NCBI GenBank assembly: GCA_000934665.2
Contig: JYFJ02000451.1
Coordinates: 1-64,000 of the forward strand
Direction of reading: 5' to 3'
Source of the DNA: Catajapyx aquilonaris
Taxonomy: Eukaryota
Length of the DNA: 64,000 nt
Shown one piece after another: positions 3,501 through 63,500 of this stretch. The notes under the pieces are model-generated. The model saw only the letters and a list, made by a program, of their open reading frames with translations. It was not told the origin of the DNA and ran no database searches. Position 1 is the stretch's first letter; each line of letters begins with the position of its first letter. A program made the position numbers and the translations under genes.

Positions 3501-6500
3501 GCACCTTTGCTCTCGCAATTCCATTAATATTCGCCTCTGTGACTCATCTAAACATCCTATCTGTTTTGCGTTTATTTTGCTTGTTGCCTTGGAGGACCCC
3601 TGGTCATATTCTGCCTCAGATAAGGTTTTTATGACCCTTTTCCATGAGTTCCCCTTCATGCAAATGTTGTGAACTCACTCCTGACCTTATTTTTTGCATT
3701 GGTCCATAGCCTGGTCCAATAAAAATTTGAAAGGAATGCATGAAATGGCGGACCCGGATGCATTACTTTCGAATTCTCACATTGGTGCCATCACATTTGT
3801 CTCCACTTTTACGTTAAAATAATTTTTTGGTGCGAAAGGACACGAACGAAAGGATGTGTCATGTTGATTAATTTACCAAGGTAGGACTGTTTCCTGTCCT
3901 TTCCCACCAAAAAATTATTTCAAAGTAAAAATGGAGACAAATGTGATGGTACCAATTTTAAAGTAATGCATCCGGGTCCGCCATTTCATGCATTCCTCTT
4001 CAAATTTTTATTGGACCAGGCTATGGACCAATGCGAAAAATAAGGTCAGGTGTAAGTTCACAACATTTGCATGAAGGGGAACTCATGGAAAAGGGTCATA
4101 AAAACCTTATCTGACGCAGAATATGACCAGGGGTCCTCCAAGGCAACAAGCGAAATAAACGCAAAATAGATAAGGATGTTTAGATGAGTCACAGAGGCGA
4201 AGTTATTAATGGAATTGCGAGAGCAAAGGTGCTCAGATGTTCTCAAGATTATGCTTCAAAAGATAGTGTACATTAGAACTGCTTGTGGACTTTTAAAAGA
4301 TGTGAAAAAACGCTGTGAAAAGTAGGGTTAAAAAACCTGGGGGGGTCCGAAACTTTCCGTCCACCCTGTATATTGTGATGCAGCACAATTTTAGCCGGCA
4401 CTCTCACATTCCTGGGGTATAATAGTTTATAATTTTGTGTAATACATTCTATATGTTTCAAAGTGATGTAGGAAACAATTGATATGATGATGACTTCTTT
4501 TACATTTACTAATGGATTGTGCGTGGGTATTGGGTATATGGGCGTTGCAGGGATTCGTGCTGGACTTCTGCTTCAGCTCAAATGATTACTTCACCAACCA
4601 AGTCCTGACCAAGGAGTATGAGATGAAGTGTGTCCCTGAAGAGACTGACCCTTTCAGCTTTGAGGGGCCTGAGATATACAAATGCAAGGTGAGTAGCGGC
4701 TGGAAAGAAATCTTGAGAATGGAAGAGGACATTATAACTGTCCGCGATACGATGTAATTGTATAATTGGAGGAAAGCTACTGTTTTGAATCTCATTATTT
4801 AAGTCACAGTGGCTCAACGCCAAAAGGTTGCCAACACTTGAGTGAAGCAAGGTGGTGAGCCAGTTTCTTCACCGATGCCTGTAACTTATAAGCATGAAAG
4901 CTTGACCCTAGTTGAGGACAACCTCTCTTCATCCCCCTTTCTGGCAGTTCAGATTTGTGACCAGAACTAGGGCAGTATAGAGAGGGATAGCAAACTCCTG
5001 TCATTTGGGATCCAGCCTTGATTGGTATCATTTCTGGGTTGCTGCATGTTTTGGCAGGAGACAAACCATTCCTTAATTTCTTCTCTCATCTGCTTATCAT
5101 TTTGACAAACTGAACTCACACCTGTTCCCTACACCTAGGGCTGCACCGTCGATTGGAAGAAGGGCAAGAATGTGACCGTGAAGACCATCAAGAAGAAGCA
5201 GAAGCACAAGTCTCGAGGGTCTGTCCGGACAGTCACCAAGACTGTGCAAAACGATTCATTTTTCAACTTCTTCAGCCCTCCCAGTGGTGAGTGCTCATTG
5301 CCACCCACATTTCATGGCCACCGTTACATGGAATCTTCATAAATGAATGTATCAAAGGATGAGTGAGGTTGATTGTGTCATTGATAGGCCATTAGTGGGG
5401 CTGTGTCTGGCATTTGGTATCAATAGTTTGCCCATCACTTCCTATCTCCCATCCCATGTCCTCCTATACCAGCCCCCAGTCACTCACCCTCTTTTCATGT
5501 GAGCTTAGGATTGGCCACGCTCGGCTCTAGAGGCAACTGCCTAGATGGTCACACCTTACCTAGCGGGGCAATTCTGAACCCTTTGGGTCGACTCCAATTG
5601 GCTGGAGTCTGAAAGGCCTCATGTGAAGTGCCATGTTGTGGCCCAAGGAGGCCAGCCAATCGGAGTCGACCAAAAGGGTTCAGAATTGCCCCGTTAGGTA
5701 AGGCGTGACCATCTCGGCAGTTTACTCTCGGGCTGACCGTGGCCAATCCCCCTCGGTGGGGGAGATTAGCTAAGCTCACTGGGGTAGCAATGTACTGGTA
5801 TAGGGAGTGACCGGGGGCTGTCCTGTACCCTTACATTTCATCTGTGGCAAAATGTTTTAAAAATACCCCATGGAAGTAGTATATGAAGTTTGCCTTCCAG
5901 TTCATAGTACATCATGTCCAATATTGTTCAAACCTCTCTTGTGGTTTGGAATGTTAAGCCTCTGTCTCCCGCTTGATAATGCACTCTTTGGGTGGGAGTT
6001 TAAAAAGAGCACCTTAGGTGAATATCACTGGATCTGGGACTTTTGGTTTTGCTCTCAATTCATGCACAAGAGGGGGCTGAACGTTGCGAGACATAAAAAG
6101 GCATATCAAGAGAGAGCATCAACCGCCTCATATACTATGCACAAGATGGTGGCGTCATCCTATTGCAACATGTATGCGTTTTTTTAGGCGGCTCCCACCC
6201 CTCTAAAAAATCCGAGATAATTATATATGATTTCCTAGTCTCTCTGATGAATTATGAAAACAAAAGTGCCTGGTTAAAAATATTTAAAGGTCCTGTTTAA
6301 GTGGAGGTAATGTGATCTGCCAGGTGCATAAAAAGACAGCTCATGTCAAGTGGGCAATGCCTAGAACTCCGAGCAGTCCGCCAATTAGGAGCAAGGACAC
6401 TTTACAACCCAAATGGCACCGGGGTAGTTGGCCTACCCTTCACAGATCATTCTGATTTTTTCCCTGGCAAAGAGTAAGTCGCAGAATCTCGGGAATTTTA

Positions 6501-14130: not shown

Positions 14131-14539
14131 GTCGTATATTTTTTTTGTGTGTGACAAACTGCGGCATGTTTTTTGGACATTAATTTGAACCAGGATAATT
14201 GGTAATATAAAACTGTCAGATATAGTGGGTTATAATTACTCTAATTACTTTACTCCAATAGTAGACAATGAATTTAACAGAATGCAAATGATGCGATCCA
14301 ACTGCAACTGTGTGTTGGTCTTATTACTTTGTGCAATTTACATATTAGTAGCTCAAAAATAATGCATCAGCTGCCACTAACTTATTTGACACACTAATTA
14401 TTTGCTTATTAGTCTTGTAATGTCATTGGTACTGAAACAGGGTTTAATTTGTGGATGTCGTAATAATTATAATGCCATTTTTGGGGGGGTCCATTTCTAG
14501 GTGCTTTGAAATGATGACGAGCGTTTTTTGAGAAAAGAA

Positions 14540-17500
14540 ATGCTTCGGTCGTGCAGCAGACCACTCCTTGTGAGAGCCCTGGCGTTGCCGAAGAGCCTGA
14601 GAAAATTGCAGTCGTCGATGAATATGCAGCTTTTGTTGCCACGTGTGTGCCTGCCTCATCCGAGGCTCAGGAGCACCGAGTCTGATGGATATGACAGTGA
14701 TCGGGAACCTTTCACGGATGTGGAATTGACCAAGGATGAGACCGAAATCCCTCGGTTGAATCTATATCCTGGGGCGGACGACTCGCTTCTTGCCAGTCTA
14801 ACATCAGCAGGTTCATTTCAGAATGTTTTTGATCTGATCCAGGCAAACCAAGACTGCCTCGATGAAAGACATGCTAGCCAAGCAATTATTACTCTGTGGG
14901 ACTTGCAGAAGATTTTGTATCGCATTGGAGTTGCATACGGTCCTGAAGTACTAGTGCAAGACTACATACATCAAGTCAGAAGTCATGAAATGTTTAAAGT
15001 GTTACTAAACAAGTTGAATGAATGCCACCAGAAATTGACTGACGATGCTTTAGTGTGTAGTGTGCTCTATCTGGACAAGATGGGGCTGGACATTAAGAAT
15101 GATGTGATGCAAAACTTGATTAGTGCAGCATCCGAAAGGTTACCACATTTGCCACTGACTGCACTAAGCAGGTTTACAGTAATTTTCCGAAACAAAGGCT
15201 TGTACGGTGCCATGATGTTAGCACCTGTAATGCCGATAATTTCATCCCGTCTTGAACAGTGTAGTTCAGACGTTGACCTGCGCTTGGTGACCATATGTCT
15301 TAATAATACTCACTCTTTTATCAGTTCTGCACTTGCCCGTGCATATTTTAGGAAGGTTGAGGAACTGTCTGACAACATATTTGACCCAATGACAATGGCA
15401 AAAGTGATGTGCTTTTTGACTCGATATCAGTGGATCCAGAGATCTAAAACCAGTCAGTTGATTAAAAAGCTGGGACGTAAATTGGAGGGAAATGTAGGCA
15501 AACTGGATATATTTGATCAGGTAATTCTGCACAAGGTTTTAGAACTGCAGATGGAGCCTGCAGGCTTAATGGAAGCCCTTCAGAGTCACATGGCCCGAGT
15601 CGTTGAGGAGGAGACGGAGGGCCTACCAAGAGCTGATGTTCTCTATTGCGTGGTGTGGAACAGTGTGTCTGTAGCCCAGAAAAAGAAGCTGGAGTCTGTT
15701 TTCCAGATGTATATGAAGGACATGGACATTTTTGCACAGTACCTTCCGCAGCTCCTGAAACTTATCAGGTATTGTTCTCTGCAATATGTAGTAGTCGCTC
15801 TGACTAATAATGTTTTCCTATTTTTAGAGTTCTCAAGATCAAAAATAAGGACTTGTACAAAGAATTCTGGGACAAAGTGGTCGTGGCCATGGACAGTTCA
15901 CCGACAATCACTGATCACCTGGCTGCTCATCACTACCTTCATTTCTTGGCTGGCTCGATGGGCCAGTTCAGACACAAATCTTTTGAAAGTCACCTCAAGA
16001 ACATCCTTCTGAAGGAACTCAAGTACGACTCCATCATGAGTCCGCATCGGTTCTTTAGGATTGCTTCCTTCTTCATTGCTTGTTCAACGGAAGGCATTCC
16101 GGACATTATCCTGCACAAGCTGAGAGAACTTGTTTCGCAGATCAGCGTCAGCGATACTATGGCATTGTCGAAGGGAGTCCAAGTGGCACTGCAAAGGCAC
16201 AGGAACAGGGGATTCCAATCTAACCACGTTTTGGACCAGATCACTGGGGTTGTGCAAGTCTTGAACGATTGTGCGCTGGACCACATTACATCTTCTGAAA
16301 GTGTTTTCCACCTTGCCACTGTGGGAAAAGCATACCTGAATCGCAGGGGAACTACAAACACTCTTCTGTTTGAGACCCTGAACAGCAAGATTGCAAGCAT
16401 TATCCAGGATGATCTATTATCGTCTCGCACTATGTTGGACTTGGCTTACATATACTCATCCACGAGTTATTTAGTAAAGCCAATCATGGATCACCTTGTG
16501 TCGCAAGTGGTGGATAATGCAGAGTGTCTTATGCCTGAAACGCTGGAGAAGTTTCTGAACTTATTTTACGTGCTTGGATACAGACCAAAGTGCGAAGAAT
16601 TTCTTACGGAATGCCTTAGGGTTCTGGAAAGGTAAATTAAGTTAAAGGAAATTGAGAATGATTAACACGTGTTACAACATTACATAATATCCACAAAAGA
16701 TAGTCAGTCATAGTGCAACAATAATTTCAGGCTTGCTTGTCATTGAAAAATATATTAACTGCACCATATGAGTTCTGGATCAGTTCAAAATTTAACAATA
16801 AGTGACCATTCATGTTAGTCATTTGTTATTATTTTCTTTTCTTTCTTTCGCACACAGCGTGTATGATGTTATGTTGTTCCCTGTGGCATGAGAGGCTAAT
16901 ATATATGTGCTTTTATGTACCACAGGCACCATGAGAAATTACCATGCATCACCATTCTGCAGGCCTCACTTGCACTTTGCTTCTTCCAATGTGTCAATGA
17001 GTCATCACTTCAGTCAATTTTTAATGTGGACTTTCTGGACCGGATTGAAGAGGAGATAAATGCACAGCCAAAGGTTGCAAAATTTAACGAACAAATATGT
17101 CGTTTCTGTTGAAATGAAGGAGGAACTTACAAGGATTCATATTTTAGCTCAAGTATTCTGTAAAACTTCGTCAGCTACTAATGGAACTGAATAGATGTGT
17201 CTGCATCGAGTATCCTGAAGCTAACATACCCTGGTTTCATGAAAAATATTGTCAAGAAATGACATGCAAAAGTAAGTCTGTAAACACTTCAAAATTTTTG
17301 CTGTTGAGTTACCAATTGCATTTTTTTGCAGTACATGTGAACAGGTCGGTATTTCAAGATGAAGTTCGCAATATTTTGTGCAGAGTGGCAGGTAGTGAGA
17401 AGTACATCAAGGACAACGTGTATTCGCCATACTATCACTACATAGGTAATGTGCATTATTTATCAGGTAATCTTTGACATTTTGATATTATCTAATGCGT

Positions 17501-19427: not shown

Positions 19428-19493
<66 letters not shown>

Positions 19494-19693
19494 TAATGGA
19501 TACCCCATGATAGGCCTTCTTGGGCCTCTTAGGGATCATCTTTTAATTGGCGGTCTTTATTCATTGCTTGTCATGTGATGGGTTTTGATAGTGGGAGGAA
19601 ACGGGAGAACCCCGAGAAAACCCACGTGAACATGGACAGAACCCATAGAAACTCTTTCCACATGGCACTAACCACTACACCACCATGTTGCCC
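19428..19693 (-). mobile_element. tRNA-derived SINE with a V-domain-like core, (ATT)n tail and 17-bp TSD
   Basis: Minus strand: GGGCAACATGGTGGTGTAGTGGTTAG (A box), core GTGGGTTTTCTCGGGGTTCTCCCGTTTCCTCCCAC, and (ATT)n tail at about 19426-19492. TTCAGTAACAAGGATTA is duplicated at 19411-19427 and 19694-19710. Confidence 0.85.
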
Positions 19694-21800: not shown

Positions 21801-22139
21801 AAGTGCATATGACCAGAGATATTAAAGGCCTCTAACATTTATTGGTATGACTGACCATACGTATGAAAGGCTTCTTATACTTATGGGTATGACCTCAACG
21901 CACATCTCACACTGCATCTAGTCAACACGTAAATCAACGTAACATCATGCCCATAAAACTGCAGCTGGCCCAGTGCCCCGTTTTTTGGCATTTTAAATCA
22001 GCGTCCTTCAACCCTGGCTAGGCGAAAGTGAAACCTACGTATCAGAATCGCAAAATTTAATATCCAGTTTTTGAACACAAACCGGACTAAAAATGGCGCC
22101 TTTCCCCCTTCCGAAATTGTCATAACCTCAAGGCCGCTT

Positions 22140-22345
22140 AGGAACCAATCAGAAGTGACAATGTTGGCCAATAGGGGCTTAACCACCTGGTCCCAAATTA
22201 GGCCAATTGAAGCTAAAGTTGCGAGTCGACGCATGCGTACTGTGCCAGGCACTGCTCGTGTAATCCGCAACACACCACACAACAGCTGACCAATTAGAAG
22301 CCTGCGCGCAGTGTACGTCATCAGTTGCGCAAGCTCCAATTGGTC
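22140..22345 (+). promoter_or_regulatory. PNPLA2 core promoter: CCAAT-box cluster and initiator
   Basis: CCAAT at 22145, 22168, 22203, 22290 and 22336; CRE-like TACGTCA at 22314-22320; arthropod-type Inr TCAGTT at 22321-22326, about 195 nt upstream of the ATG. Confidence 0.6.
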
Positions 22346-22517
22346 CCCCGTGATTATTCAAGCCGCCAGCCGTGCGATGCGTTCAGATTACTCGAGGCGG
22401 GAGACTGGATCAGACGTCGTCGTGTCCCGTTACTCTCTCCCTCTGCTACGGATTCTGATTATTGTTATTGTTCGATTGACCTGACCTGCCACGACCCCGT
22501 TCACCCTGGAGGGCAGC

Positions 22518-25500
22518 ATGAACCTGTCGTTCGCCGGGTGCGGCTTCCTGGGCATCTACCACGTCGGGGTGGCAGCCTGCTTCAAGAAGTACGCGCCGCA
22601 CCTCATCGTCAACAAGGTGTCCGGAGCATCAGCTGGAGCCATCGCGGCCTGCTTCCTTCTATGCGACGCACAGCTCGGTAAGGAACGCAATACACTGTAC
22701 TTGTAGGGACATGTACAGAGGGCTTTACTTCGGGACGAACGAACGTTATTGCGGCTTTGCCTCGGTCGTGTAGTATCAATATATAGTTGGTGCGGAAGTA
22801 AGTCATGAATAGCACCTGCCTGCTGGAAATGGGCTGTATTCAGTGGAGCGTGATACTGACAGCCAGGGCGTAGCCACTCCTTTCATTCAACAAATTTTTG
22901 GAACAAAAATTGTTGGAGCAGACCTGAAGCTCAAATTAGCCTCCAAGAGAGGCCTCATCACAACTCCATGAGGAGGAGGCTAATTGCAGCTACAGATCTG
23001 CTACCTTACTCATTTCCCTGTACTGTACTATATCGCTCAAAAATTATTTTGCATTTTTGGTTTCACTGCGTGTCTATCTTTTTGAGAGATATAGTGTACA
23101 TAGCAGACATTTTCCCATAACAGGGTGTTTCATAACTGATTGGTCTCTTCAAAAGCAATATTGCACAGTCCGTGAAGGTTGTTGTCTTTGGACTGGTGAC
23201 TGGGGCAGTGCACCGCCCTGTAGGTGCCATGTATAATCTGATTGTCGACAGTAAAATTCCACGGATTGGGAAATCCCATGGGCAGCTTGCGGTCATGTAC
23301 ATTGTACAGTACCCTACAGGCAGGATTATAAGCTTTTAAAAGGCCTGGCGACATGAGTCAGACAGAGGGGGCCAGGTCAAAACCGGGGCAGTGACTGAGT
23401 AACACCCACATGATTCAGGTCAGCTCGGGAATTTTTAACTGCGGGCTAAAATTTTTGGGAGAGAAAGAGACGAGAGAAAGGTCCCAGGCCAGCGCAATTG
23501 ATGCTGGTCAGCAGGGCGTGTAGAAAAAGTGCTTGGCGAAGGTTACGGGACAAGGACAGGCTTGTGCGGCAAGGCCCACCAAAAAAAAAATCCAATTCTC
23601 GTGTAGCGGTACTTACAGCAGCATCGCCAAGGATATTACGCACGTGTTGTTGTTTTGTGACGTCATGTAGGACCACAGTCTTTTTATCGCGTCATTGGCA
23701 TAAATATTGGCGATTTGTACTAGATGCTATGGACCTGCAATATGCAATTGCTGTAATGCATATATACCCTCGGGCGACACATGTTGTGCCATACCGGCAC
23801 GTGCAGGGAGGTTGCGCACAACTTCAATCTCACTGTCAGTAATTGCAGTATGTCAAAACATAATTTGCAAATCTCCCTTCGCCATTATTAAATCCCTCAC
23901 GTTTTTTTTTCAAGGACTGGCTGCTTGTAAATCCTGTACGTACTACACATATGTATGAAATACACATGAGCAATACAATGAATATTCTGATGACTAGCCA
24001 GGTCACTCAGAGGACAAAATTACGTAAAAAACCCACGAGTTTATTGCACTAAAAGACTAATGCGCATTGTCAAATTATGAGGTGATCAATCATTATTTTT
24101 TTTCGGCACGTGTAGACAATGCGGTAAGAGTAATTAGGCAATTTCCGGAGTGATTGGCTTTTTTGCGCTATTTTTGGCAAGGTGAGTTTGGTTATTTGCA
24201 AGTGACGTCACTTAATTTATGGGGGGGTTAATAAATTGCGACGTACACAGCACACACTTGGCATTTTCCTTTCAATCTCGAATCGCAAAAGTTTTGCGCT
24301 GGGAGGTCATCAAGTGGGGGGTCGCCTCGAAGGGTCATCGAGATCTGGACGCGTTCCAGGACGCATTCCTGGCCACGGATCAGCCACCTCGGGTTTCCAA
24401 CACAACATATGTAACATGGTCCATTCTTTCCATTGTCCCTGGTTGCGGTCAGCATCACAACAATAACATGGTTGCGTCACATTTGTGACCACATGGGTGG
24501 TCATCTCTGAACTTTTTATGGGCTTTAAAGGCGAGTTGGGTTAGGTAACTAGTAGGAGAGGTTGTGGCCTTTTGCAAAATAAGGCTGAGAGAAATGCCAG
24601 ACGAAAATACTGGTGGTAAATGTGGGAGTTGCAGCTGATGGCCTTGTCCAGCCAACTGGATTCGTCAGCACCAGGGCAGAAATTATTATCTTCACGGATT
24701 GGGGAGGCCTTGGAGGATTCGCTAGATGAATGTGCATCAATGCTTACTGTCAGATGCACTGCGCGTTTAATTACCTTGGGCAAATTGAGTTGTTTTGGGA
24801 AATGAAAATGTTTAGCAATTACCAGTTATTGTGTAGAAAGTACAGTATGTATACATTGGCACAACTACTGACTGCAGGATTCGATGAATGAAGTGTCCCT
24901 GAAAATGAATCTTCAATGTGCTCGGCAGTATCGTAACATCACTTTTTAACTATTGGATGTGAATATATTGGCTTTTGCATGTTTTCCTATATGTGGTGTG
25001 TGTTCTGCTGTTATCGCACCTGTTACAAAATTATCTGGAAGTTCATAGAACTTGCATGTCACTGGCCCCAAATCATCAGCGTATACAGCATATAATTATC
25101 TCGTCAAGGGTTGAACTGTAACTAATTCAAACCACGAAAACCTTAGTAATGTGAGAAGTGAGTTGTCAACGGCTGGTCAACTTGTAACTATTATACTAAA
25201 TAATGAGAGATAACTCATGCACAATCTAACAGTATGTACAATACACGCTTCACATTACTAGCTCTGTACATGATGCACCGCACTATGTAAAAACTAGCAG
25301 TAATAAGGTGGAAAATGTTTGTTAGTATGTGAAATGGCCTTGATAGTATGGGAACTACATATCTGGTTTGACAAAAGGTCTCCTGAGTTTTGATAAGAAG
25401 CTGTGTTGCCCGCAATTTTTGATGTTGAGGACTTAGCAAGGCTTTAACAAGCCGAGCCGCTTTGTAGGTTTGTGGCGCAAAATGTCCTGGGAGTAAAAGT

Positions 25501-28500
25501 AATGCGACTCAATATTGATGTGTAAAATAAACAGAAATTCTAGTGCATGTAGCCTGATAACTCAAAGTTTTGCTTATTGTGGATTCACAGGTCAGATCAC
25601 AAGTGATGTGCTCCGAGTGATTACGTTAGCAAGAGCAAAGACCTTGGGACCATTTAGCCCTTCTTTTAACATTCAGAGAGTTCTCCAGGAAGGTTTGATG
25701 AAGGTTGGTGGGAATCGCTTTGGTCTTCATTTATTATCACTTCACACTGGCATGCACCTAACATGTACATAGTATATGGCACTGTATATTTTGTGTAAAT
25801 AAGATAACAGGAAGATTACAAAGAGTTGCAGTGACCTTGTTGTAAAAATACAAGTATGCCATGTGTGTGGGATAAAAAAAGGGTGAGAACTCAGGGAAAA
25901 TAACCTACAGTTTTTTTGTTTTCCCTAATGTTCACAGAACCTGCCTGAAGATGCTCATCTTCGTGTGAACGGAAAGCTTCACATTTCCATGACCCGGGTG
26001 TACGACCACAAGAATGTCATCGTGTCACAGTTCAACAGCCGAGAAGATCTGATCCAGGTGAGGTGGACAGGTCAACACAGAAGTTGAACCCCCCTCCCCA
26101 CACAACTTTGTTGTAATCAGTTTTGTGATCCGTGTAATAAGTGCGGCATTGTTTGTTTGATAATGTCTCAAGAGGGAGGTAATGCTCCTCCCTAACCAGT
26201 TAGTCATGAAAGTTATCCTGGTTTTTGCAATAATCTCTTCTATCTGAGACCAGCTGATGACTCTGGACCCAGTGAGTCACTCAGTTACCCAAGGTTAGCT
26301 GCTGGCTGACCTTTTGCCAAGTGCACTGCAGTTCGGACAAAATTCTTGCTGAACATTTCATTTAACAAGTAATTCAGAAAAGTGCATGTGAAATTTTCAA
26401 TATGATTTAGTTCAGTGTAGAAATGAAATATTTTTTATGCCATCAGGCACTCCTGTGCTCAGCGTTCATCCCAATTTTCTCGGGGTTCTTTCCCCCGAGG
26501 TTCCACAACGTCCCTTACATGGACGGTGGCTTCACCAACAACCTGCCCTTGCTGGACGAGCACACTGTAACAGTTAGTGCTTTTTCGGGCGAATCAGACA
26601 TATGTCCGCTAGATGATTCCGACCACCAGTATTATGTAAGTCAAAATGCAGGCTTAGGGCATCTTTCTCAATCTGTATGCTGGTGTAGGCTTGACACTAA
26701 TTTATTTTCCCCCTCTCCTTCGTTGTTTCAATTTCTTGTTAACCCAATTATACTCAAAAGCATGCTTTTTCCCTTTTTTTTCTTTTCTGCATGCAGGCAC
26801 TTATGTGCAGTAGCTTCATTCCTTTCTTCTGCGGATGGTTGCCTCCAAGGTTCCGAGGCATCCGCTACATGGATGGGTGCTACAGTGACAACCTGCCCAT
26901 TCTTGATGAGAACACTATTACTGTCAGTCCTTTCTGTGGCGAGAGTGACATTTGCCCTCGTGATAGTGCCTCTAGTCTCCTACAGGTAACAAACTGTTTT
27001 CCTACTTTTTTGGCATCTTGCTGTGACACCTTAAGACTTGGTTTACTAATGACTAATGTACTCGTGGCATTCCATCTGAGCAATCAAATCTGTCCAACAA
27101 GTAGAGTGATTGAGTTATGTAATCTTAATTTGTACCATGCTAAGTTCAAGGCTCGAGATACTATTAAGAAGACCACCTTGGATCAATTCATTTCATCATA
27201 TGCCAGCAGCGAGTTTAGATAAATTTGAGTTGGACCATGTAAATTAACGTTATCAAGAGCTAATAACTGTTATTAGCTCTTGACGTTATTGAGCAAGAAA
27301 TTTGTTGCCAGGTTTGGACATGACCACTCTGAGAAAATGTGTACAGATCATGCTAATTTCATAATTTTTAACTTCCTGGTACAGATCAACTTGTGCAACA
27401 CCAGCATTGAAGTGTCGCATCAAAACCTCTACAGGTTTACCCGTATCCTGTGGCCGCCAAAACCGGAGGTAAGAACCGCTTTTTATCAGCTGTGGTGTGT
27501 TAATCAATTGACATATTATCGTTCATTTTGCCTGGGATGTTGTACGTAGGGTGGCGGGTCAAAACATGTGCCCTTCTCATTGGGGTGAGTTTCTTGTCAA
27601 GGTAGATAAAATTAGGATCTCTCTACACGTGTGGTGACTCAAATGTTACTGTACAGGGATACGGATTTTTAGCTGCTGCTATCTTGTTCCTGCTTGATAC
27701 AGCGCAACATTTTTCTAATTGCTACACATTGTGGCGTTAACCATTGTAGTACATGGCATGATTATGGAAAGTTGATTCAATCAGTTTGACCGATTTTGCA
27801 GCATGTTTTGTGAACAACTAGTGTGGAAATTGTTAGGAAATGTGGCATAATGACAATATAGCAGGTAAAATAACAGGGGAGAGAAAATCATAAGTTCCTT
27901 GTAGATTTAAGTACAGAAAGGATCACATTAAATTATTTATTACCAGAGGTGTGCTTGTATGTTTTCACAGCACATCCCATATTAGTTGAAGTGGGTTGCC
28001 AAAGGTGCATGATACGTGTGTGCGATTTAATAATATGTATTGTTTTATGCTAATGCAATATTTCGTGCATGCAGGTCCTGTCGAAGATGTGTCAGCAAGG
28101 ATTTGACGACGCCCTCCGCTTCCTTCACCGAAACAATCTCATCAACTGCACCCGTTGTTTGTCAGTCCAGTCCACCTACCGCCTCTCAGAGACGCTGGAT
28201 GATAGCATGGACTACGATCCAGATTGCACCGAATGCAAGCAGCAGAGGCAGGAAGCTCTGCTGGATGGCCTTCCAGAGACAGTGGTCAACTGCCTTCAAG
28301 ATGCCATCGAAGCAACCAACAAAGGATTGGTTAACTGGGTCTTCAAGCACAACACAGTCAAGCTGCTGTCCATCCTCTCACTTCCATGCATCGTGCCAGC
28401 AGACATCCTCTATGCAACCTTTCTTAAGTGAGTTGTATGCTTGTTTTTGACCTGTTGTGGTGCTTCATTATCTACTTTTTTGGCCTCATGAACAAGTAGA

Positions 28501-30396
28501 ATCAAAATCATTACTGAAAAAAATATAATTAGACATCAATAAGTTTCATTGCTGACGAGCGTCTTTTTCTTCAGGTTCCTAGAAGCTGCACCAAAGGTTC
28601 GAAAGAACATCCAGATCTTGGGTGAAGCCCTCGTTGAGTTCCTGGTCAACATTGTGTCGAAGGTGACTCCAGCCAAACTGTACTCTGCCAAGTTCACCTG
28701 CCAGCTCGCCATCACCGAGTATGGAGATGGTAAGCTACACCTTTTGTACTCTCTCATTTATACGTTACCGTTCAAAAAAGGGAGGCTTACTGTATTTGAA
28801 AACTGCAATGTCAGTAAGGGAAGGTATAGGAGTTTCATTCTCTACAGAGCAGCCTTTTGTGCTATCGTAATCTATCATGTGTACGGCCTTGGTTCAGGTG
28901 CACGTAATCTGGAGGAAAAGTACACTTCATTCCACTTCAATAAGACACAGAAATTCACTTACTCATCTTTAAGTGGATTTTAAGTTCAGCATGACAATAT
29001 GATTTAGAGGTGATGAGAAATATGACTTTGTTGTCCTTTGAATTTTGATCAGCCTCCGATTTTTATGCCAAGGTGCCGCAACATTTGCATTATGATAATG
29101 TACTGATCAGAATTAGTCAATTTGCTTCGTTCAGGTTTATGGTGAACTACCTCAAGGATTTTAAGTAATTTTTTTGATGTATTGCTTGTTACATTTGATT
29201 TACTGCATGATTTACAGCCAGATACGATGTTGAAGCAGTTAGGGAGCTTCCTCCTCGCCGCCGCCCATCTGTGATGAACAAGGTGAACTTTGGCTTCACG
29301 CTCAATCTGGACAACAGTGCGCCTGAGGCAGCTATGGAAAACGGCACCTGCGGAGAGGGAGACGACACCTTTGACCGCATCCTGGATGCCGCCACCAATC
29401 ATGACGCACTCATGGCTTACTATTACCTTGATGAAAACAATCAGGTAAAATAACCAGTATTTAGGGGGAAAAGTATTGTCAAATATCTCTCTCACCTGGT
29501 TACAAAACTTGCAATCTTATCAACCACACCTGATTACGCTCGTGGTGGGTGGTGATTGGAGACAATGGCCTCCTATCAGCTAATCTCTTCTTTTTTTTTC
29601 TACTGCAACATGGCTCGTTGGGTCCATGAACTCTGAAGAGAGATGTTTCATGCTCAATGAAGCTTCTTTATCTTAAATTATATGTTCCATCTGCCATGAG
29701 AATGAAGTCTTTATGGTTGTGGTAAAAAACAGTACAGATGATTGCATTGTTGTGGGAACTCAATTATGTTAGCTCTCAACTAATTCCAAGTGACTTCTCA
29801 TTACAGGTTAAGGTCACTCAGATCTACGATGTGACTGAGGCAGACACTTCAGCCGTCTTGAGTGCGGAGGAGAGAGCAGCAAATGCACAGCTTGAGTTTG
29901 ATGGTAACTGGCCAGGGCTGATCAAGAAGGCAGCCTCGCAATGGAGCCTTCAAAACTCCCTCCTGGATATGACGGGTTAGTTTTCTCTCTTGCGAGTAAA
30001 CCATGTCACTCGCATTAGCTTGTACATGTTCTAAATGCATTTGACAAGTATTCACCTCGAAACATTAATTTGCTTTTATCTTTCTCAGAAGGAGACGAAA
30101 TAGGCAAACCTCTGTATGGCCATTCGCCCCTCTCTTCGCTTGACCTTTCGGGAGACCACGATGGCGCCACCTTCTGCTCCGACCCTGAGAGCGAATGGAA
30201 CCATAGAGACATTCCAGAAGCTTTCGTCACCCCGATGCCTTCTTCAAACCCTACAAGCATTTCTGGCTTCCAATCTCCTGGATTCAGGAGCATAGGAAAC
30301 TGCAGCCCCGAGTCAGACCGGAATCAGATGTCCGATTCACCGAGTCCAATCCAGAGGAAAAATTCCTTCGTCATTTTTGAAGACGAACATTCCTAA
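22518..30396 (+). CDS. PNPLA2: Patatin-like triglyceride lipase, ATGL/brummer orthologue (~625 aa)
   Basis: Exons 22518-22677, 25591-25703, 25938-26057, [26447-26635 or 26797-26985], 27385-27468, 28075-28427, 28575-28729, 29218-29444, 29807-29975 and 30089-30396 (1878 nt with one exon-4 variant). Motifs: [17 protein letters not shown] oxyanion loop, GASAG nucleophile, MDG catalytic Asp, [19 protein letters not shown]. Confidence 0.95.
23028..23094. mobile_element. Short copy of the CTATATCGCTCAAAAA hairpin MITE
   Basis: CTATATCGCTCAAAAA...TTTTTGAGAGATATAG, the same termini as 10132-10232. Confidence 0.55.
26447..26635 (+). CDS. PNPLA2: PNPLA2 exon 4A (189 nt, DGG variant)
   Basis: CATCAG| acceptor and |GTAAGT donor, phase 0/0. 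Encodes [63 protein letters not shown]. Confidence 0.88.
26797..26985 (+). CDS. PNPLA2: PNPLA2 exon 4B (189 nt, DGC variant)
   Basis: Long pyrimidine tract with TGCAG| acceptor and |GTAACA donor, phase 0/0. Encodes [63 protein letters not shown]. Confidence 0.9.
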
Positions 30397-32074
30397 AGTT
30401 CAGACCAAAATTTCCTGTGTATCCTCCCCCCAAGTATTATCATGCAAGACTGCATCTGGACTGTCATCCATATTTAAATAATCGAGTCAAGTTTTAATTT
30501 TTGCCAAATATTCGTGGGACTGATTTCGCATCGCAGTAGTGTTTAACAGGTTGGGACCTTGTTCTTCCATTCAAAGCTGACAGGAATTTGTCGAATCTCT
30601 GGAAAAAAAAAAGTTGTACAGTGTTTTTTTCACCCAAGAAAACCACAGAATTCCTGTTGACTTTTGCAGCAATTTGCCAACATTCCTTTTATTTCTACCG
30701 AAGGCCATTTTTTGCACATATTTTTTTTTCTCCATTTGAATCACATAGTTGACAAATTGTGGCCACGTTGTACAGTATGTATATCGCTTGTACAGATTTT
30801 TGTTTCATCATTTTAACAAAAAGTGCAGATGTGATTGCTGCCAATTTGTAAAGATGTAAGGGAGAATTAAAGAGGTTTTAACATGTACCAATTTTTAAAT
30901 GACCTTGATCACATAAGCACCTATTTACATTGTATACTGTATATACATTAGAACTAAAAATTATGACCATGTACAGGGAATTCTAAGTTCTTGGATGTTG
31001 GAATATATTATTTTGGGTATCTGTGATAAATTTTGACAAGGGTAAACAGTGCTTCAGGTGGACTGCTTTCTGCCAAAATTATTTTGAAGTCTAATCAGGG
31101 TACAGTTGTAATACAATTTATCTAATTCTACTCAAGGAGCTGCCTGATGGTTGATCATGTATTAAATATTGGCATGCGTTTAACAAGAGCACTATGGTTT
31201 AAGTTGCATTTCCATAAGTAGGTTAATTAGTGAATGCAAATCGCATGATTCTGACGACTTGCACATTATAATCAACCTGTAACAAGTTGTCACCACTTAC
31301 TAACCCCTATGTAGGAAATTGCTGTGATAATCATGTTGATTTGGAAAGCGTCACATCAAGAAATTAATAATGACCATAGGGAATTCACGTAATAATCAAA
31401 AGGAGGGAAAAAAATCCAAGGTTAAAGGCAATGGATTTCTTAAAGTGAACTGCTGGGCCCGTGGCCCCGCCCCCAAACAAACTTCTCTCCTCCCTCCTCC
31501 CTCCTCCCCAACTTCTCCCCCCACCACTTTGGCACCATGACAACATGTATCCCTCCGCCAGAGGGACACCTTATTCCGATGGTGCTTATGCGCGCCGAAA
31601 AGAAGTGAAAAGAAGAGATTCGAACACCGTTTCCTTGGATTCGGAACAATGCCACGACAATGCTTCGAAATTACGCGGGCACGGATCCCGATGCTCTTTT
31701 GTCTCTCGCCTTGAAAGTAGTCCCCATGTGGCAAGGTTGCTGATTTTAATTTTTTTATTACGCTATTCTAAATAATGCTTTAGTGTTCATAAATTATGTC
31801 AGAACCAAATAATTGATATCGGCTTGATATCGGTCGAATTCCTTTTTAAAATACACCATCAATTACATTTATGTATTTTCACCTGACAACCTTACTGTGA
31901 CGCACGGTCGTACAAGCGACCCCATTGGTTCGCCCGGGGGGGCGTGTCTGTTCACTCTAAGAAATCCGTTGCCTTTACCAAATGATTCTACCATTCACAG
32001 ATGACCCCTTTATTGCCCAAAATTAACGTAGTAGACACTGCCACTGAGACAAGTGACTTGGCTGCTTTTAGACT

Positions 32075-34715: not shown

Positions 34716-37700
34716 ATGGCTTCGCCTAAGCAAGTGGTAAGCAAGAATGTCATTAAAGTAACGATCCGGTCTTGCAACCGAAAAAAAAACATTAATTCTG
34801 CAGCATTCGTACATCTCGTACACCGTACCGTGCAGAGAACGTACTGATCGGACCATAAATAATATTCTGAAAGTCATGGGTTTTTTTTTGTGTACGTGTG
34901 TACCGATACTCATCTATCGTGCAAACCCAATTTAACCTTTCGATCCTTTTAATGGTTAGTAATAAATTATTCGAAAGTTAAGAGGTTAAGAACAGCATAA
35001 AAACTGCGGGGAAGCACAACTGAGGTTGTCCGAATCAATATCTGGCGGGGCTGGAAAAGTACGTGCTACGTACAGTGCCCTAGTACACTGGACATATCTC
35101 ACTCGAATTTTAATGGTGAGATCCACTGAATGATGCATAAGCCAGACATCTGTCCATATATGTGCACTATGCATGCACGAGTATTGTACGAGGGGAATCA
35201 CCATGAATTTGCATATTAAGTGACAAAAAATTACATTAAAATATTTTAGGCTGTTTAAATGTGTAGATGTTCTATTGCTTTACTCTCCTTTTAGCTTTGA
35301 TATTTTTTCAATCAGCCTATTTAATAAATATGTATTCTATTTTTAGCTTATTGCATTGTCCTGAATTAAGTGGTGACATACTCCTACATCTCACTATTAC
35401 AGTAGAGATTATTAACTATTAATAATTCTGCATTGAAGTGAAGCGTTTTCGTGGTATGACCTGTTTGTTACATTTACGTCTAAAGACATCAACCGGAAGA
35501 CGGGAAAGTTGCGCACTTTCTAACTCCACTATAATGAAAAATGATAATTAATGATGGCAGTTCGTTCGTCGAATTCATCAGCGGTGAAAGCTGCGGTTTT
35601 CCTCTATGAGCAGCCTTCAATCGTAGTACTACTGCTTTTAGTCGAGGACAAAATAGTTGGCTTGGGTACACACAAAACACAAACGCCCACGACATACGGA
35701 GTGACGAGCCTTCAAAAACAACCCTAAACTACGCTTCAAGGCGCCAAACTCAAACGCGTGACGTAACACACACGACGCACTACCGGTGCACCATACTGAA
35801 CACCGCTGAGGCTCGAACACTATCGTAGTTGGTCTTCGAGGGGGGGGGGGGGGGTGGNGGGGGGGGGGGGGGGTGGAGCAGCCAGAAGGTCAGACAAACA
35901 GGTCGAGTTGCGTATCATTTAGTGCGAGTGCCCTGAGGACAATGCAGGGGAATTGCCAAGGGAATTGCACCCTCATTGTTCAGGCGCAGTATATGGCTGG
36001 GGGGGGATTGCGTAGTAAATACCGAGGGAAATTCTGAGCCGAACAATAAGGGATGAGTCGGAGTGTAATTAGGGTGCAGCACGGATGCCTCACTTGATTA
36101 TCCACACGCATTTGGCACGGATGTCTACAACCAGTCAGAAGCATACCGGGCGTTGTGGTCGACTACGACAATGTGGTTTATGTCCATATGCACGATTTTT
36201 CACAACAAAAAATAATAATGGCGTGTGATGTCACGGTCCGTCACACCGACCGTGACAGGTGTTGCTAAATCGGTGCAAATCCAGTGATGATCCTTCTGCG
36301 GTGTTATCACAGCCATACGGCACTTGAGACGTCAACGGCATAAATACGGCCTGTATTGAAAGGTTGTAAGGTACACTTGTACTGACGAAGATGCGGGGGG
36401 TTCCGACAGCACGCTATTTTATTTCAATGGCACTTCGCGTAACACTTCCTGAGCGGTACGGTCAAACGTGACAAAGATTGATCACGCACGTCTGATTAGG
36501 GGCGCTTTTCATGATATGTGACCGGGCTACATTAAAAAGTGTATAGTAACGGCATCGTAAATTGCCGAGTGCCGGAAACTTATTGGAGTGGGGTTGTAAA
36601 GTTTTGGCACTTATGCGAACTCCAGTTTCTTTTGTTGATTGTTCTCCCCTCCCCCCCCNCCCCCCCAAAAAAAAACAATGGGGCAAGATCGTGTCACAAT
36701 GATAGGGGAAGGTCACTGTCTTTGATGTAGAACCGATGATGTGTGAAATGTCGACTGTTCCGACCGGTTCCGACAGTTCCTGCTACTAGTCTACGTGTAA
36801 CAACAGTTTGGGGCCAGAATGGTTTTAATTAAATTTAAACTAAATTAATTTCCAAGTACTTTTGGTCAACAAGGTTTAACAAATGCAGGCAGTTTGGTTC
36901 ACCCTGTGGAACCCGGTTTGTGTTTTCTATGCACGAAACCGTAACCCTCTCGAGACAACCTCTGAAATTACGTACCGTGATTACGAATAAATTACGGATA
37001 ATTCATACACGCGAGCCACACTTTTCCTCCAAAAACTGGCAGGGTGGAAACTGTACAGTGTAATCATAAATCTGTACTTAACCGACCCTGTGTAATTTAA
37101 CCCACATCTAACTAACGACCTTTTTTTCTTCCCAGCTGAAGAGCATAGGGCCCAAGTTGGTGCCGTTCTTCAAGACGGTGGCCATCTACTTCGTGCTGTT
37201 TATACCAGTGGACAGGCCATCATGGTTCAGCATGCTCCTCAAGTGCCTGCCCATCGTCAGTCTCGTTGTGTTCGTCCTGCTGCATGGGATGAGCCTAGGC
37301 GATGAGTACGTACATGGTGTTTTAAAGCTGGGTTCAGACTGGCGTCGTTGGTCGTTGTGCCGTGTTGCACATATAGTGTACAATTAATATTCAATACTAG
37401 ACAAACCATCGCTTCTCTCACTGGCTGCAGGTGGTAGAGCCGGACCGATGTAGACACTCCGGCCGACAGCGAACGAATGGGTGGTTCCTCCTGCCATCCA
37501 CCAGAGGTGCTGCCTCCACCCCCATTGCGCCTGCGCGATTGGGGGAGGCAGCGCCTCTGGTGGATTTGAAACTATAAATTCATAATTCAGCGAAAATCCT
37601 AATCAAATGTTGGACGACGTCATCACCGACGACACAAAGACAACGACCGGTATGAACCCAACGCATGGGTGATGCCCTCGGGGATTGTTGAGTGACATCG

Positions 37701-60500: not shown

Positions 60501-63500
60501 AAATGTGTGATAAGATATTATGGTTACTACTACGCAGTTGGCTTGCACATGCACAATAACATGCTGAGCCATGTGTTTGTACAGGCACGTTTTGAATAGT
60601 CATATACTAAACTTGACCCTTGACCCTCCCCCAGTGCAAGAGTCGGCACTGATTCTTCTTCAGACCGTCCCCACCCACATCCAGGTGGATGCTATCCAGA
60701 AGAAGCTGCTGTCTCAGATTGATGGTGTCATTGCAGTCCATGAGTTCCATGTCTGGCAGCTTGCTGGAGATAGGATCATTGCCTCTGCACACATAAGGTG
60801 CAGGAATCTGCAAGACTACATGAAGATTGCAGAACAAGTCAAAGAGTTCTTCCACAACGAAGGGATTCACTCCACCACCATCCAGCCTGAGTTCATTGAG
60901 GTTAGTCCCCATCTAATTGCTGCAGTCAGTATAGCTTCAACACTTGCATGTTATGTGTACTGTACTGCACTTTATTTAAACTGTTGTACAGTACATGTTG
61001 TCTCTAACTCAAAACTCCCACAACTCGGAAGTTTCTTCTGGTCCCCTGGAGAGTCGAGCTATAGAAGTTTCACTGTGTTCGTCATTCTGAATATGAATGA
61101 CTCTTTACATAATACATTCTTGAGCCACTTCCAAAATGCATAGGAATGTGCGACTTTTACCCTTCCACTCCATTTTGTGATGGATGGGTGGATGGCCCTT
61201 TTCCAGAACTAAATGCCACATGCTATCCTGCACATTCCAAATGTCAAATGAAAATTAATGTGGTCTCAGTTTGGAAAATGTCACGTGGATTGGTCTCTCC
61301 CACTTGAGCCGCAGTGCTTGCTAATGAAGTAGTGCAAGATAGTTGTGGTTTTACAGCTCTGCTCATTTTTATATGTGAAATTTTCTGACATCTGGAAAGG
61401 ACTTTGACATCACAAGGACGCAAAATTTGCATCATATCAGTTATTACGTTCCCTCAATTTGTTTTGAACTTACATAACATGCAGCCGTAGCAATTGGGAT
61501 TGGACAGTTGCATCAGTTATGTTTTGAAAGATCATGCATGGTCTAAGAGTTTTGTTTAGCATGCTTTCTTTTTTAATGTGAGACCAATTGTGCTTTTCAG
61601 TAATGGATAATCTGGAAACTCTTGTAACCTTTTAAAAATAATCCCAGAAAGTAGTACATGTTGTCATTTGGCATGAACAAGTTTCCAAACGAAAGAGCTG
61701 CAGCACATGTAAAATGTAGATTAAATATCCGCAGTATTCAGACGAGGCCCTCCCAGTGACTGAATCGCAGGACGATTGTGTCTTGGACTGCCCAGTGACC
61801 AACGACGATCAGGACTGCCGCACTGCCACATGTTGTGGGGCATCGAAGCAGGTAATAATCGCCTTAGCAATTTATAATTTGCACTTTTTGTCACCTTTTG
61901 TGCTTACTTTTTGGGGGATTCTCTCCTTTTATATTAATTGTTATTATTTATCTCTTTTGTGTCCATTTCTGATTTTGCAAAACCTTGTCTGCCAAGGAAG
62001 ACACTTCCAACACTGTGCTGATTATTTATTGCCAGTATCTTCCACTAGCCCTGTTATTTTCTTAGACTAATTTTTCCCCTGTTAGTATGCATGATGATTT
62101 ACAGAATTTTCAAGAGTAATTGGTCATTGGCAATAACTTGATGCTCTTATCATGACAGGCTTTCAAATTCTTGGTTGGAAAAATATAGGTGCGTGACCTA
62201 CATAAAAAATTCATAGTTGCTTAATTTTTTAAAGTAGAACATTTAATGATATGTGCTTGCTTTTGCTTTATTTGCATGCACAGGTTTTGTAGATACAATG
62301 AATACAGGCTATGCTTTAGCGTATATTTTAACCCCCCATTATTTCATAAAAAGTATTACCATTAATTAAGTCTGCAGTGAGAAAATAGCATAGGTTTTAT
62401 TTTTCCAGTCTAGGTTAACGGGGAGATTTACATATATATTTTTAGTTCTTGTTTCATTTTCTTTCATTCCCTCTACTGGTGATATCATTTTTCATTTGGT
62501 GTTCCTTGTAGCATGTGCCTAAAAGTAATGGCGTCAAAAGTAATGGCATCGATAATAACGGCCTCGAATATAATGCCGACAAAAGTAATGTCGTCTGACT
62601 GAGAGTCCATGCCGCTTACGTCTGGTAAGCAAGTTGGCGTACAAAAAAAAAAGCATGACACGTATTTATTTTCAATTTCTCACTTTTATTTTCATTCATT
62701 CATTTTATGCATTGACTTCTACTGCTCTCTGCTGGTTCTTGGAAGAAAAAAATTGATCGACAAACAACTTCCTACTGAAATGGAGTTTGGGGCTTGCATT
62801 GCTGCTGTAGAGATATTTCCATTTCACTAACTGTTGAATTTATTTTTAAGTAGATCGTTGTGGGTATGCAATTAACAGGAGTCAGTGGTTTATTATTGGT
62901 GCATTTATTGGTGCATATTTTGTATGTGCTGCTGAAGTAATTCATATTGGTGCATGTTGGTGTACATGTGTGGCAAATAGATAAACAGTTTTTTTTTTTT
63001 TTTAAAGATGTCACATGGTAACTTGGGATTTAGAAAATGTGACATTTGTTGAAGGGAATTGAATGTGGAAAGCAAGAGTAGTTTTTACCTATCCTCTCAG
63101 TCCTACCTTGTTCAGTCTATTCCTTTTTCAGCGGCAATTGGCATTTATTAGATCACATGTTTTAAATGGTAAACTTGAAGAGCCACAAACAGTTCACGAC
63201 CTCTACTATATTCGGTAATGGTTACTTTTTAGTGCTGCTCATAAGGGAAATGTTTTAAATTGATACCTAGCGCTATAGGAGTTGCATAAAATTTGGGTGT
63301 CATATGGAATTGCGTCGCCTTTGTCATGCAATATAAAAATTAGAAGCTGAAAATTTTTAAATTCAGTTATGAATGGAAATAAATTGTTCAGCTCCTGAGC
63401 TTTACTGGGTGACTAGGATGGGAATTACATATATGCTACTTTCATTCGTGGTAAGCGACTCACAAAATTTATTGGACTGACAAAACTCCCACATCCCAAT

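Follow-up and report, generated by a model that had tools for sequence, protein, structure and literature searches.

Can one gene supply two versions of a lipase by exchanging the exon for the catalytic aspartate? The question is raised by a stretch of the Catajapyx aquilonaris genome, positions 1 to 64,000 of the forward strand of contig JYFJ02000451.1 (GenBank assembly GCA_000934665.2; this whole stretch of 64,000 nucleotides is here called the window). It carries a single patatin lipase gene of the ATGL/brummer type on its + strand, in which two neighbouring, similar exons, 4A (26447..26635) and 4B (26797..26985), each encode the aspartate motif of the active site. ATGL/brummer catalyses the rate-limiting step in mobilising fat and serves as a model for lipid storage disease in humans; to our knowledge each gene is generally taken to give a single enzyme. 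The two exons, which encode the active site's second half, are ancient tandem copies of one exon, and we consider it likely that one or the other is spliced into the message: the pre-mRNA would be spliced from exon 3 through either 4A or 4B to exon 5, and the products would be two lipases that differ only in the 63 residues surrounding the catalytic aspartate and perhaps in catalytic or regulatory behaviour.

Two homologous exons and their joints in transcript-like contigs

The gene was delineated by tblastn of four full-length homologues, by open reading frames (ORFs) and by contig joints; the tblastn searches placed neither a third copy of the exon nor a second such gene in the window. Among the matches listed, all full-length homologues contain the Patatin domain (PF01734), and the nearest relatives are named brummer, PNPLA2, PNPLA3 or triacylglycerol lipase. 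Judged by these similarities, the gene is an ATGL/brummer-type patatin lipase, the PNPLA2 orthologue of an arthropod, with predicted lipase activity.

A preliminary description of this DNA had proposed two neighbouring stop-free exons of 189 nt, both of phase 0/0 and with good splice sites, and the borders and translation of the two agree with it. Exon 4A, the upstream copy, which we call type A, runs between the borders cag/GCACTC...TATTAT/gtaagt, contains MDGGFT and ends in ...HQYY; exon 4B, the downstream copy or type B, runs between cag/GCACTT...CTACAG/gtaaca, starts with CGW... and ends in ...LLQ. Each encodes 63 residues in phase 0 between AG and GT flanks. Recomputing the proposed likeness gave the same figures, 36 of 63 shared residues (0.57, with a nucleotide identity of 0.62) and one aspartate motif of the form DGx per exon, DGG in 4A and DGC in 4B; by BLASTP (36/58 identities, E 4e-29) the resemblance is far beyond chance. 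Either exon by itself matches Pfam Patatin over profile positions 155-188 of 191 (E ~2e-4, 22 bits), below the whole-protein cut-off of 27.7 bits, as is usual for a piece of 63 residues. In being adjacent, homologous and equal in length and phase, the two resemble mutually exclusive exons that arose by tandem duplication.

What the exchanged segment would contribute to the enzyme can be read from an AlphaFold model of the type-B isoform of the mayfly Neocloeon, predicted with 34 sequences as input (block pLDDT ~76-96 for residues 1-160, 57-92 for residues 161-250). The best structural matches of the model share the patatin fold (PlpD, CapV/CapE, VipD, patatin and iPLA2-beta); a search of the PDB by sequence returned 0 matches to solved structures. 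The exon corresponds to residues 132-194 and comprises the end of helix 126-137, a FIPxFSGW loop, strand 153-157 ending in the aspartate, a short turn with Cys-Tyr beside a low-confidence loop (161-163), strand 171-174 and a GESDICP loop. We take the aspartate to be the dyad partner of the catalytic serine, as in patatin and ATGL, and the isoleucine of FIP to be the PNPLA3 I148 position, that of the human I148M fatty-liver variant; the segment presumably also holds the sites of several ATGL disease mutations. Three differences between the types are conserved: a tryptophan at exon position 14 in type B, the last six residues (...LFH in A, ...LQ in B) and the two residues directly after Asp-Gly, which are Gly/Ala-Phe in A and Cys-Tyr in B.

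A search for sequencing runs listed none on record as RNA; we drew on the one public run found, X1, whose kind is not on record. Its Logan contigs, with 32 million letters and a share of 0.39, were compared with window positions 22000-31500. We treated X1 as transcript-like because its contigs cover exons and skip introns at GT..AG. Both exons are joined directly to both of their constitutive neighbours, exon 3 (25938..26057, ending in ...REDLIQ and donor to 4A and to 4B) and exon 5 (27385..27468, acceptor for both), each of which is also supported by tblastn. The joints are exon 3 to 4A (26054>26444, cut +3, depth 14.6), exon 3 to 4B (26054>26794, cut +3, depth 14.2), 4A to exon 5 (26635>27385, depth 14.6) and 4B to exon 5 (26980>27380, cut +5, depth 19.8), contig depth giving no ranking of the A and B forms. 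All four are GT..AG once the cut offsets are applied, with 0 other letters on the pieces shown, so that the junctions by which the preliminary description had defined the two forms, 26057>26447, 26057>26797, 26635>27385 and 26985>27385, are all present in these contigs. X1 also joins the remaining introns of the gene, 11 joints being listed altogether. Neither a 4A>4B joint (26635>26797) nor a joint from exon 3 to exon 5 is among the X1 joints listed, where contigs show presence and not absence, and the 161-nt intron between the copies (26636..26796) is spliced out in no contig. A further X1 contig of low depth (3.3) spans 26956-27281, starting in the last part of 4B and continuing through part of the next intron, which suggests unspliced or intron-retaining RNA.

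The pair might instead be an artefact of an assembly that set two alleles, or a repeat that had collapsed, in tandem. Such errors are a general possibility, and the window does contain a short run of N, near 35850 (X in translations), elsewhere than at the exons. The copies, however, are just 62% identical in DNA, gene models of several species and two independent metagenome contigs share the layout, and each copy is present in the RNA-like contigs, whose pieces shown have 0 mismatches; we give this explanation almost no credence.

Distribution, age and conservation of the two exon types

A search of a protein collection with 4B gave 622 matches, and the 120 of them that were listed were classed by exon type, strict type A being defined by an end in ...LFH and strict type B by a tryptophan at position 14, DGC and an end in Q. 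Among these 120, 101 have one type-A segment, 10 one strict type-B segment, 3 one B-like segment and 6 two segments in series. The residue after Asp-Gly gives DGA in 57, DGG in 43 and DGC in 3 of the 103 type-A segments, and DGC in 13/13 strict type-B and 3/3 B-like segments. Type-A exons with DGC occur in Pogonomyrmex (P0066, P0068 and P0069), independently of type B, and so a cysteine is tolerated after Asp-Gly outside type B. The earlier suggestion that the cysteine of 4B could be redox-sensitive is weakened by these counts, as the position after Asp-Gly is a site of small residues and DGC is found in 3/103 type-A segments too.

Among the six models with two segments in series, those of Ephemera danica (P0003) and Folsomia candida (P0004) have A then B and that of Allacma fusca (P0007) an A-like segment then B; two models of Cherax quadricarinatus and one of Notodromas monacha (P0008) have two copies of which neither is of a strict type. 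The Ephemera, Folsomia, Allacma and Notodromas models, which read through both exons, are probably mis-annotated and are, with perhaps that of Cherax, public gene models to correct. In the Folsomia model an unrelated stretch separates the two copies, which we took to be intron-derived.

A counterpart to the window gene comes from Neocloeon triangulifer, whose 'Pnpla3-like' RefSeq isoforms X2 (type A, P0382) and X4 (type B, P0016) have identical sequence on both flanks of the 63 residues. The swap is the same and in the same place as in Catajapyx aquilonaris; the mayfly entry is an automatic annotation without comment, and its two isoforms differ further downstream by a 47-residue alternative segment.

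Genomic layouts came from a scan of metagenome contigs that returned 35 loci, the first 17 of which were examined. In a springtail-like locus (L002) A lies at 5336-5524 and B at 6001-6189, and in a mayfly-like locus (L003) A lies at 311-499 and B at 716-904; each of these four exons is 189 nt long with AG/GT borders, and both loci have the A-then-B order of the window. A spliced, transcript-like contig (L001) joins exon 3 to B and B to exon 5. Twelve insect loci (L004-L015) have one A exon each, and a B exon after A was absent from the five of them (L006, L007, L009, L010 and L014) that reach up to ~6 kb beyond A; L016 and L017 gave no motif match. In the window and at the two paired loci, the 5' splice sites of A exons have T or C before gt (TAT/gtaagt, CAT/gttagt and CAC/gtgaga), while those of B exons have CAG followed by a weaker intron part (gtaaca, gtttgc and gtacgc); this contrast holds at 3/3 loci and is tied to His versus Gln as the last codon.

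Proteins seen from Diptera (Drosophila included), Hymenoptera, Coleoptera, Phasmatodea, Orthoptera and Odonata have type A only. A search with exon 6 agrees, with 97/98 segments of type A and the remaining one a truncated model; its taxa are mainly Hymenoptera, with Odonata, Orthoptera, Phasmatodea, Coleoptera and Trichoptera. Darwinula, an ostracod, carries just one segment, which is B-like. A full HMMER search with 4A gave 606 matches, none of them a close relative (top identity 72%).

To date the duplication we placed 50 exon segments, hand-picked for taxon spread, in a tree over 63 columns; five more proteins were dropped, yielding no segment by motif pattern. A single change separates the A and B labels in each of the 200 bootstrap trees (100%). 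One clade unites all upstream copies with the single copies of Odonata and Neoptera (support 90/83), and 4A of the window joins the springtail A copies (support 92/90). The copies thus cluster by type, not by species, which makes them orthologous by type and places the duplication before the split of springtails, mayflies and Catajapyx aquilonaris; judged from these 63 columns, it is at least as old as their common ancestor, and we take that split to lie more than 400 million years back. We make no claim of age beyond the hexapods because the Cherax copies do not resolve in the tree and the second Notodromas copy forms a long branch; a pre-hexapod duplication, which we do not claim, would rest on that one long-branch ostracod copy.

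Both copies are under purifying selection and neither is decaying. Between orthologous copies, synonymous differences are saturated (pS 0.56-1.05) and non-synonymous ones are few (pN 0.04-0.29), dN/dS is 0.08-0.31 where computable, and 0/7 exons contain a stop. Decay of one exon, which the preliminary description had named among the findings that would count against alternative use, is not seen in the exons compared. It was nonetheless conceivable that one copy, likeliest the more diverged 4A, is non-functional and its inclusion splicing noise, as its end branch is longer than that of 4B (0.47 vs 0.2) and a word-indexed search found only 9 homologues for it against 622 for 4B. Yet 4A keeps 26/26 invariant columns of an alignment that includes 4A itself, and it has no stop; against the springtail-like orthologue its pN is 0.18 with pS saturated; its contig depth of 14.6 is similar to that of 4B (14.2-19.8); and type A is the sole form seen in Odonata and Neoptera (97/98 segments). 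Decay is largely refuted by this evidence, and we regard it as very improbable.

Probable exclusivity, its possible basis and kindred systems

We infer that 4A and 4B are normally exclusive because co-inclusion would double a core strand of the fold. How the choice could be made was sought in the introns. Whole-intron duplexes between them had energies not above chance (z 0.1-0.4 vs shuffles), and a repeat search gave 21 inverted pairs, such as 26362-26381 with 26723-26742 (20 nt, 80%). Control by docking and selector pairing was dropped as a candidate, the duplexes being no better than shuffles. Exon-masked blastn among the window, L002 and L003 found no shared intron elements, returning only chance matches of 10-14 nt (E >=0.4), a weak test at loci so distant. 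Steric hindrance, the device of alpha-tropomyosin exons 2/3, in which the first exon's donor lies too near the second exon's branch point, seems the less likely for the lengths of the introns between A and B copies at the three loci (161, 216 and 476 nt). As both exons are multiples of three, neither the reading frame nor nonsense-mediated decay can police their combinations.

A near-perfect hairpin lies in the intron between 4B and exon 5, at 27245-27288, ~100 nt before exon 5, with perfect 15-nt arms at 27253-27267 and 27269-27283. Its fold (27235-27300) reaches -22.5 kcal/mol (z -5.8), and 0/200 shuffles were as good; the arm sequence has no other occurrence in the window, and an Rfam search of 25900-27500 found only a sub-threshold hairpin look-alike.

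Several of our observations weigh against strict alternative use. The RNA support is one run of one study, in contigs only, and the shorter sides of the four key joints measure 22-30 letters, below the 31 required for a bridging record; on our reading, the branch piece of a 31-word graph cannot be longer. Contigs drop rare forms, and low-level co-inclusion or double skipping may therefore occur. The 161-nt intron has good splice signals, and we found no mechanism for exclusivity, trans-acting splicing factors being a guess; the best 30-nt local duplexes were equalled or beaten by 31/40, 29/40 and 18/40 dinucleotide shuffles. All five Cherax quadricarinatus RefSeq models seen (P0005, P0006, P0138, P0139 and P0140) hold two segments in series, both DGG and neither strictly A nor strictly B, reflecting either real decapod co-inclusion or a recurring model error. 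The tree, finally, has only 63 columns, and its A-clade branch is not starred.

These points bear on a rival account in which 4A and 4B are independent cassette exons or are frequently included together, so that transcripts with both or neither would be frequent and the term 'mutually exclusive' would not apply. With both exons 189 nt long and of phase 0, any combination is in frame; the intron between them has a gtaagt donor and a long, strong pyrimidine tract ahead of cag; no RNA structure that would enforce a choice was found; Cherax has two copies in 5/5 models seen; and the X1 contigs cannot prove absence. Against this, X1 lists both single-exon paths and neither a 4A>4B nor a 3>5 joint, the Neocloeon RefSeq isoforms have one exon each, L001 has B alone, and a doubled core strand with its catalytic aspartate should misfit the patatin fold. 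We think this rival account unlikely. The mutually exclusive use that the preliminary description had proposed stands in so far as both single-exon paths occur in X1 and 26635>26797 is not listed there; its strict form is less sure, as contigs drop rare forms and the Cherax models hold two copies.

The preferred account, one exon or the other, places the gene among known systems. Arthropod genes with mutually exclusive exons that arose by tandem duplication include Mhc, Dscam and 14-3-3 zeta. As in these, the copies in the window share flanking exons and have long been conserved, and the isoforms would differ in one homologous segment; unlike them, the pair is without detectable docking or selector pairing, its swapped segment holds a lipase catalytic residue, and frame cannot enforce the choice. 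Enzymes are also switched by exon substitution in pyruvate kinase PKM (exons 9/10), ketohexokinase (exon 3A/3C) and ATE1 (exons 7a/7b), where, as here, one gene would give two enzymes with alternative versions of one structural segment; unlike in those three, the segment in the window includes the catalytic aspartate itself, and the pair is seen in some arthropod lineages only. Drosophila brummer and human ATGL (PNPLA2) are orthologous single-exon relatives that have both the GXSXG serine and a DGx aspartate and whose homologous 63 residues are 68-80% identical to the exons of the window.

The splicing device itself is well known. The preliminary description knew of no account of it for ATGL/brummer, and in literature searches, which covered full texts only, we found no published description of the A/B pair either; RefSeq, however, already lists both forms as Neocloeon isoforms. 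To judge from the texts these searches reach, the pair is apparently undescribed in print while implicit in that one annotation.

Functional divergence of the A and B isoforms is plausible. A bolder scenario, which we offer tentatively and think doubtful, is that early-branching hexapods, and possibly some crustaceans, use an ancient regulated A/B switch in the catalytic core of their main fat-mobilising lipase, with isoforms that would differ in substrate, in the balance of transacylase and hydrolase activity or in the need for a co-activator; the invariant Cys-Tyr beside the aspartate of type B would be the functional key, and Odonata and Neoptera, with Drosophila among them, would have kept only A. 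Were this true, the textbook brummer would represent half of an older system of two isozymes. The distribution of the types points to the loss of one isozyme in insect model species, and nature's conserved swap of the segment with the catalytic aspartate could serve as an experiment on which residues tune activity, substrate choice or regulation.

Remainder of the gene and neighbouring features

The coding part of exon 1 (22518..22677, +) starts with the ATG at 22518 and holds the serine motif GASAG (GXSXG); contigs cover it from 22429, and it was placed by tblastn of homologues, the ORF text and the joint 22676>25590 (cut +1). Exon 2 (25591..25703, +) follows by that joint and by 25701>25936 (cut +2), with tblastn support. 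Downstream of exon 5, and on the same strand, are exon 6 (28075..28427; joints 27466>28073, cut +2, and 28427>28575; tblastn), exon 7 (28575..28729; contig joints), and exons 8 (29218..29444) and 9 (29807..29975), both from contig joints and tblastn. The top identity of exon 6 is ~72% among the matches listed, all of them insects; together with the springtail grouping of 4A this points to a hexapod-like organism that the protein database lacks. The last exon (30089..31402, +), with the end of the frame and the 3' UTR, is reached by the joint 29974>30088 (cut +1); the contig piece stops at 31402, and the exon extends beyond 31400.

Elsewhere in the window, neighbouring genes on the + strand are represented by a nucleosome assembly protein exon at 1972-2415 (NAP, E 1e-21) and by an exon for a zinc-transporter dimerisation domain at 60568-61140 (ZT_dimer, E 3e-10). 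A 500-residue ORF at 14510-16009 (+) has no Pfam match and looks like a real coding exon, helical and rich in leucine. A long AAT/ATT microsatellite at ~19430-19500 gives stretches of N, I, L and Y when translated in any frame.

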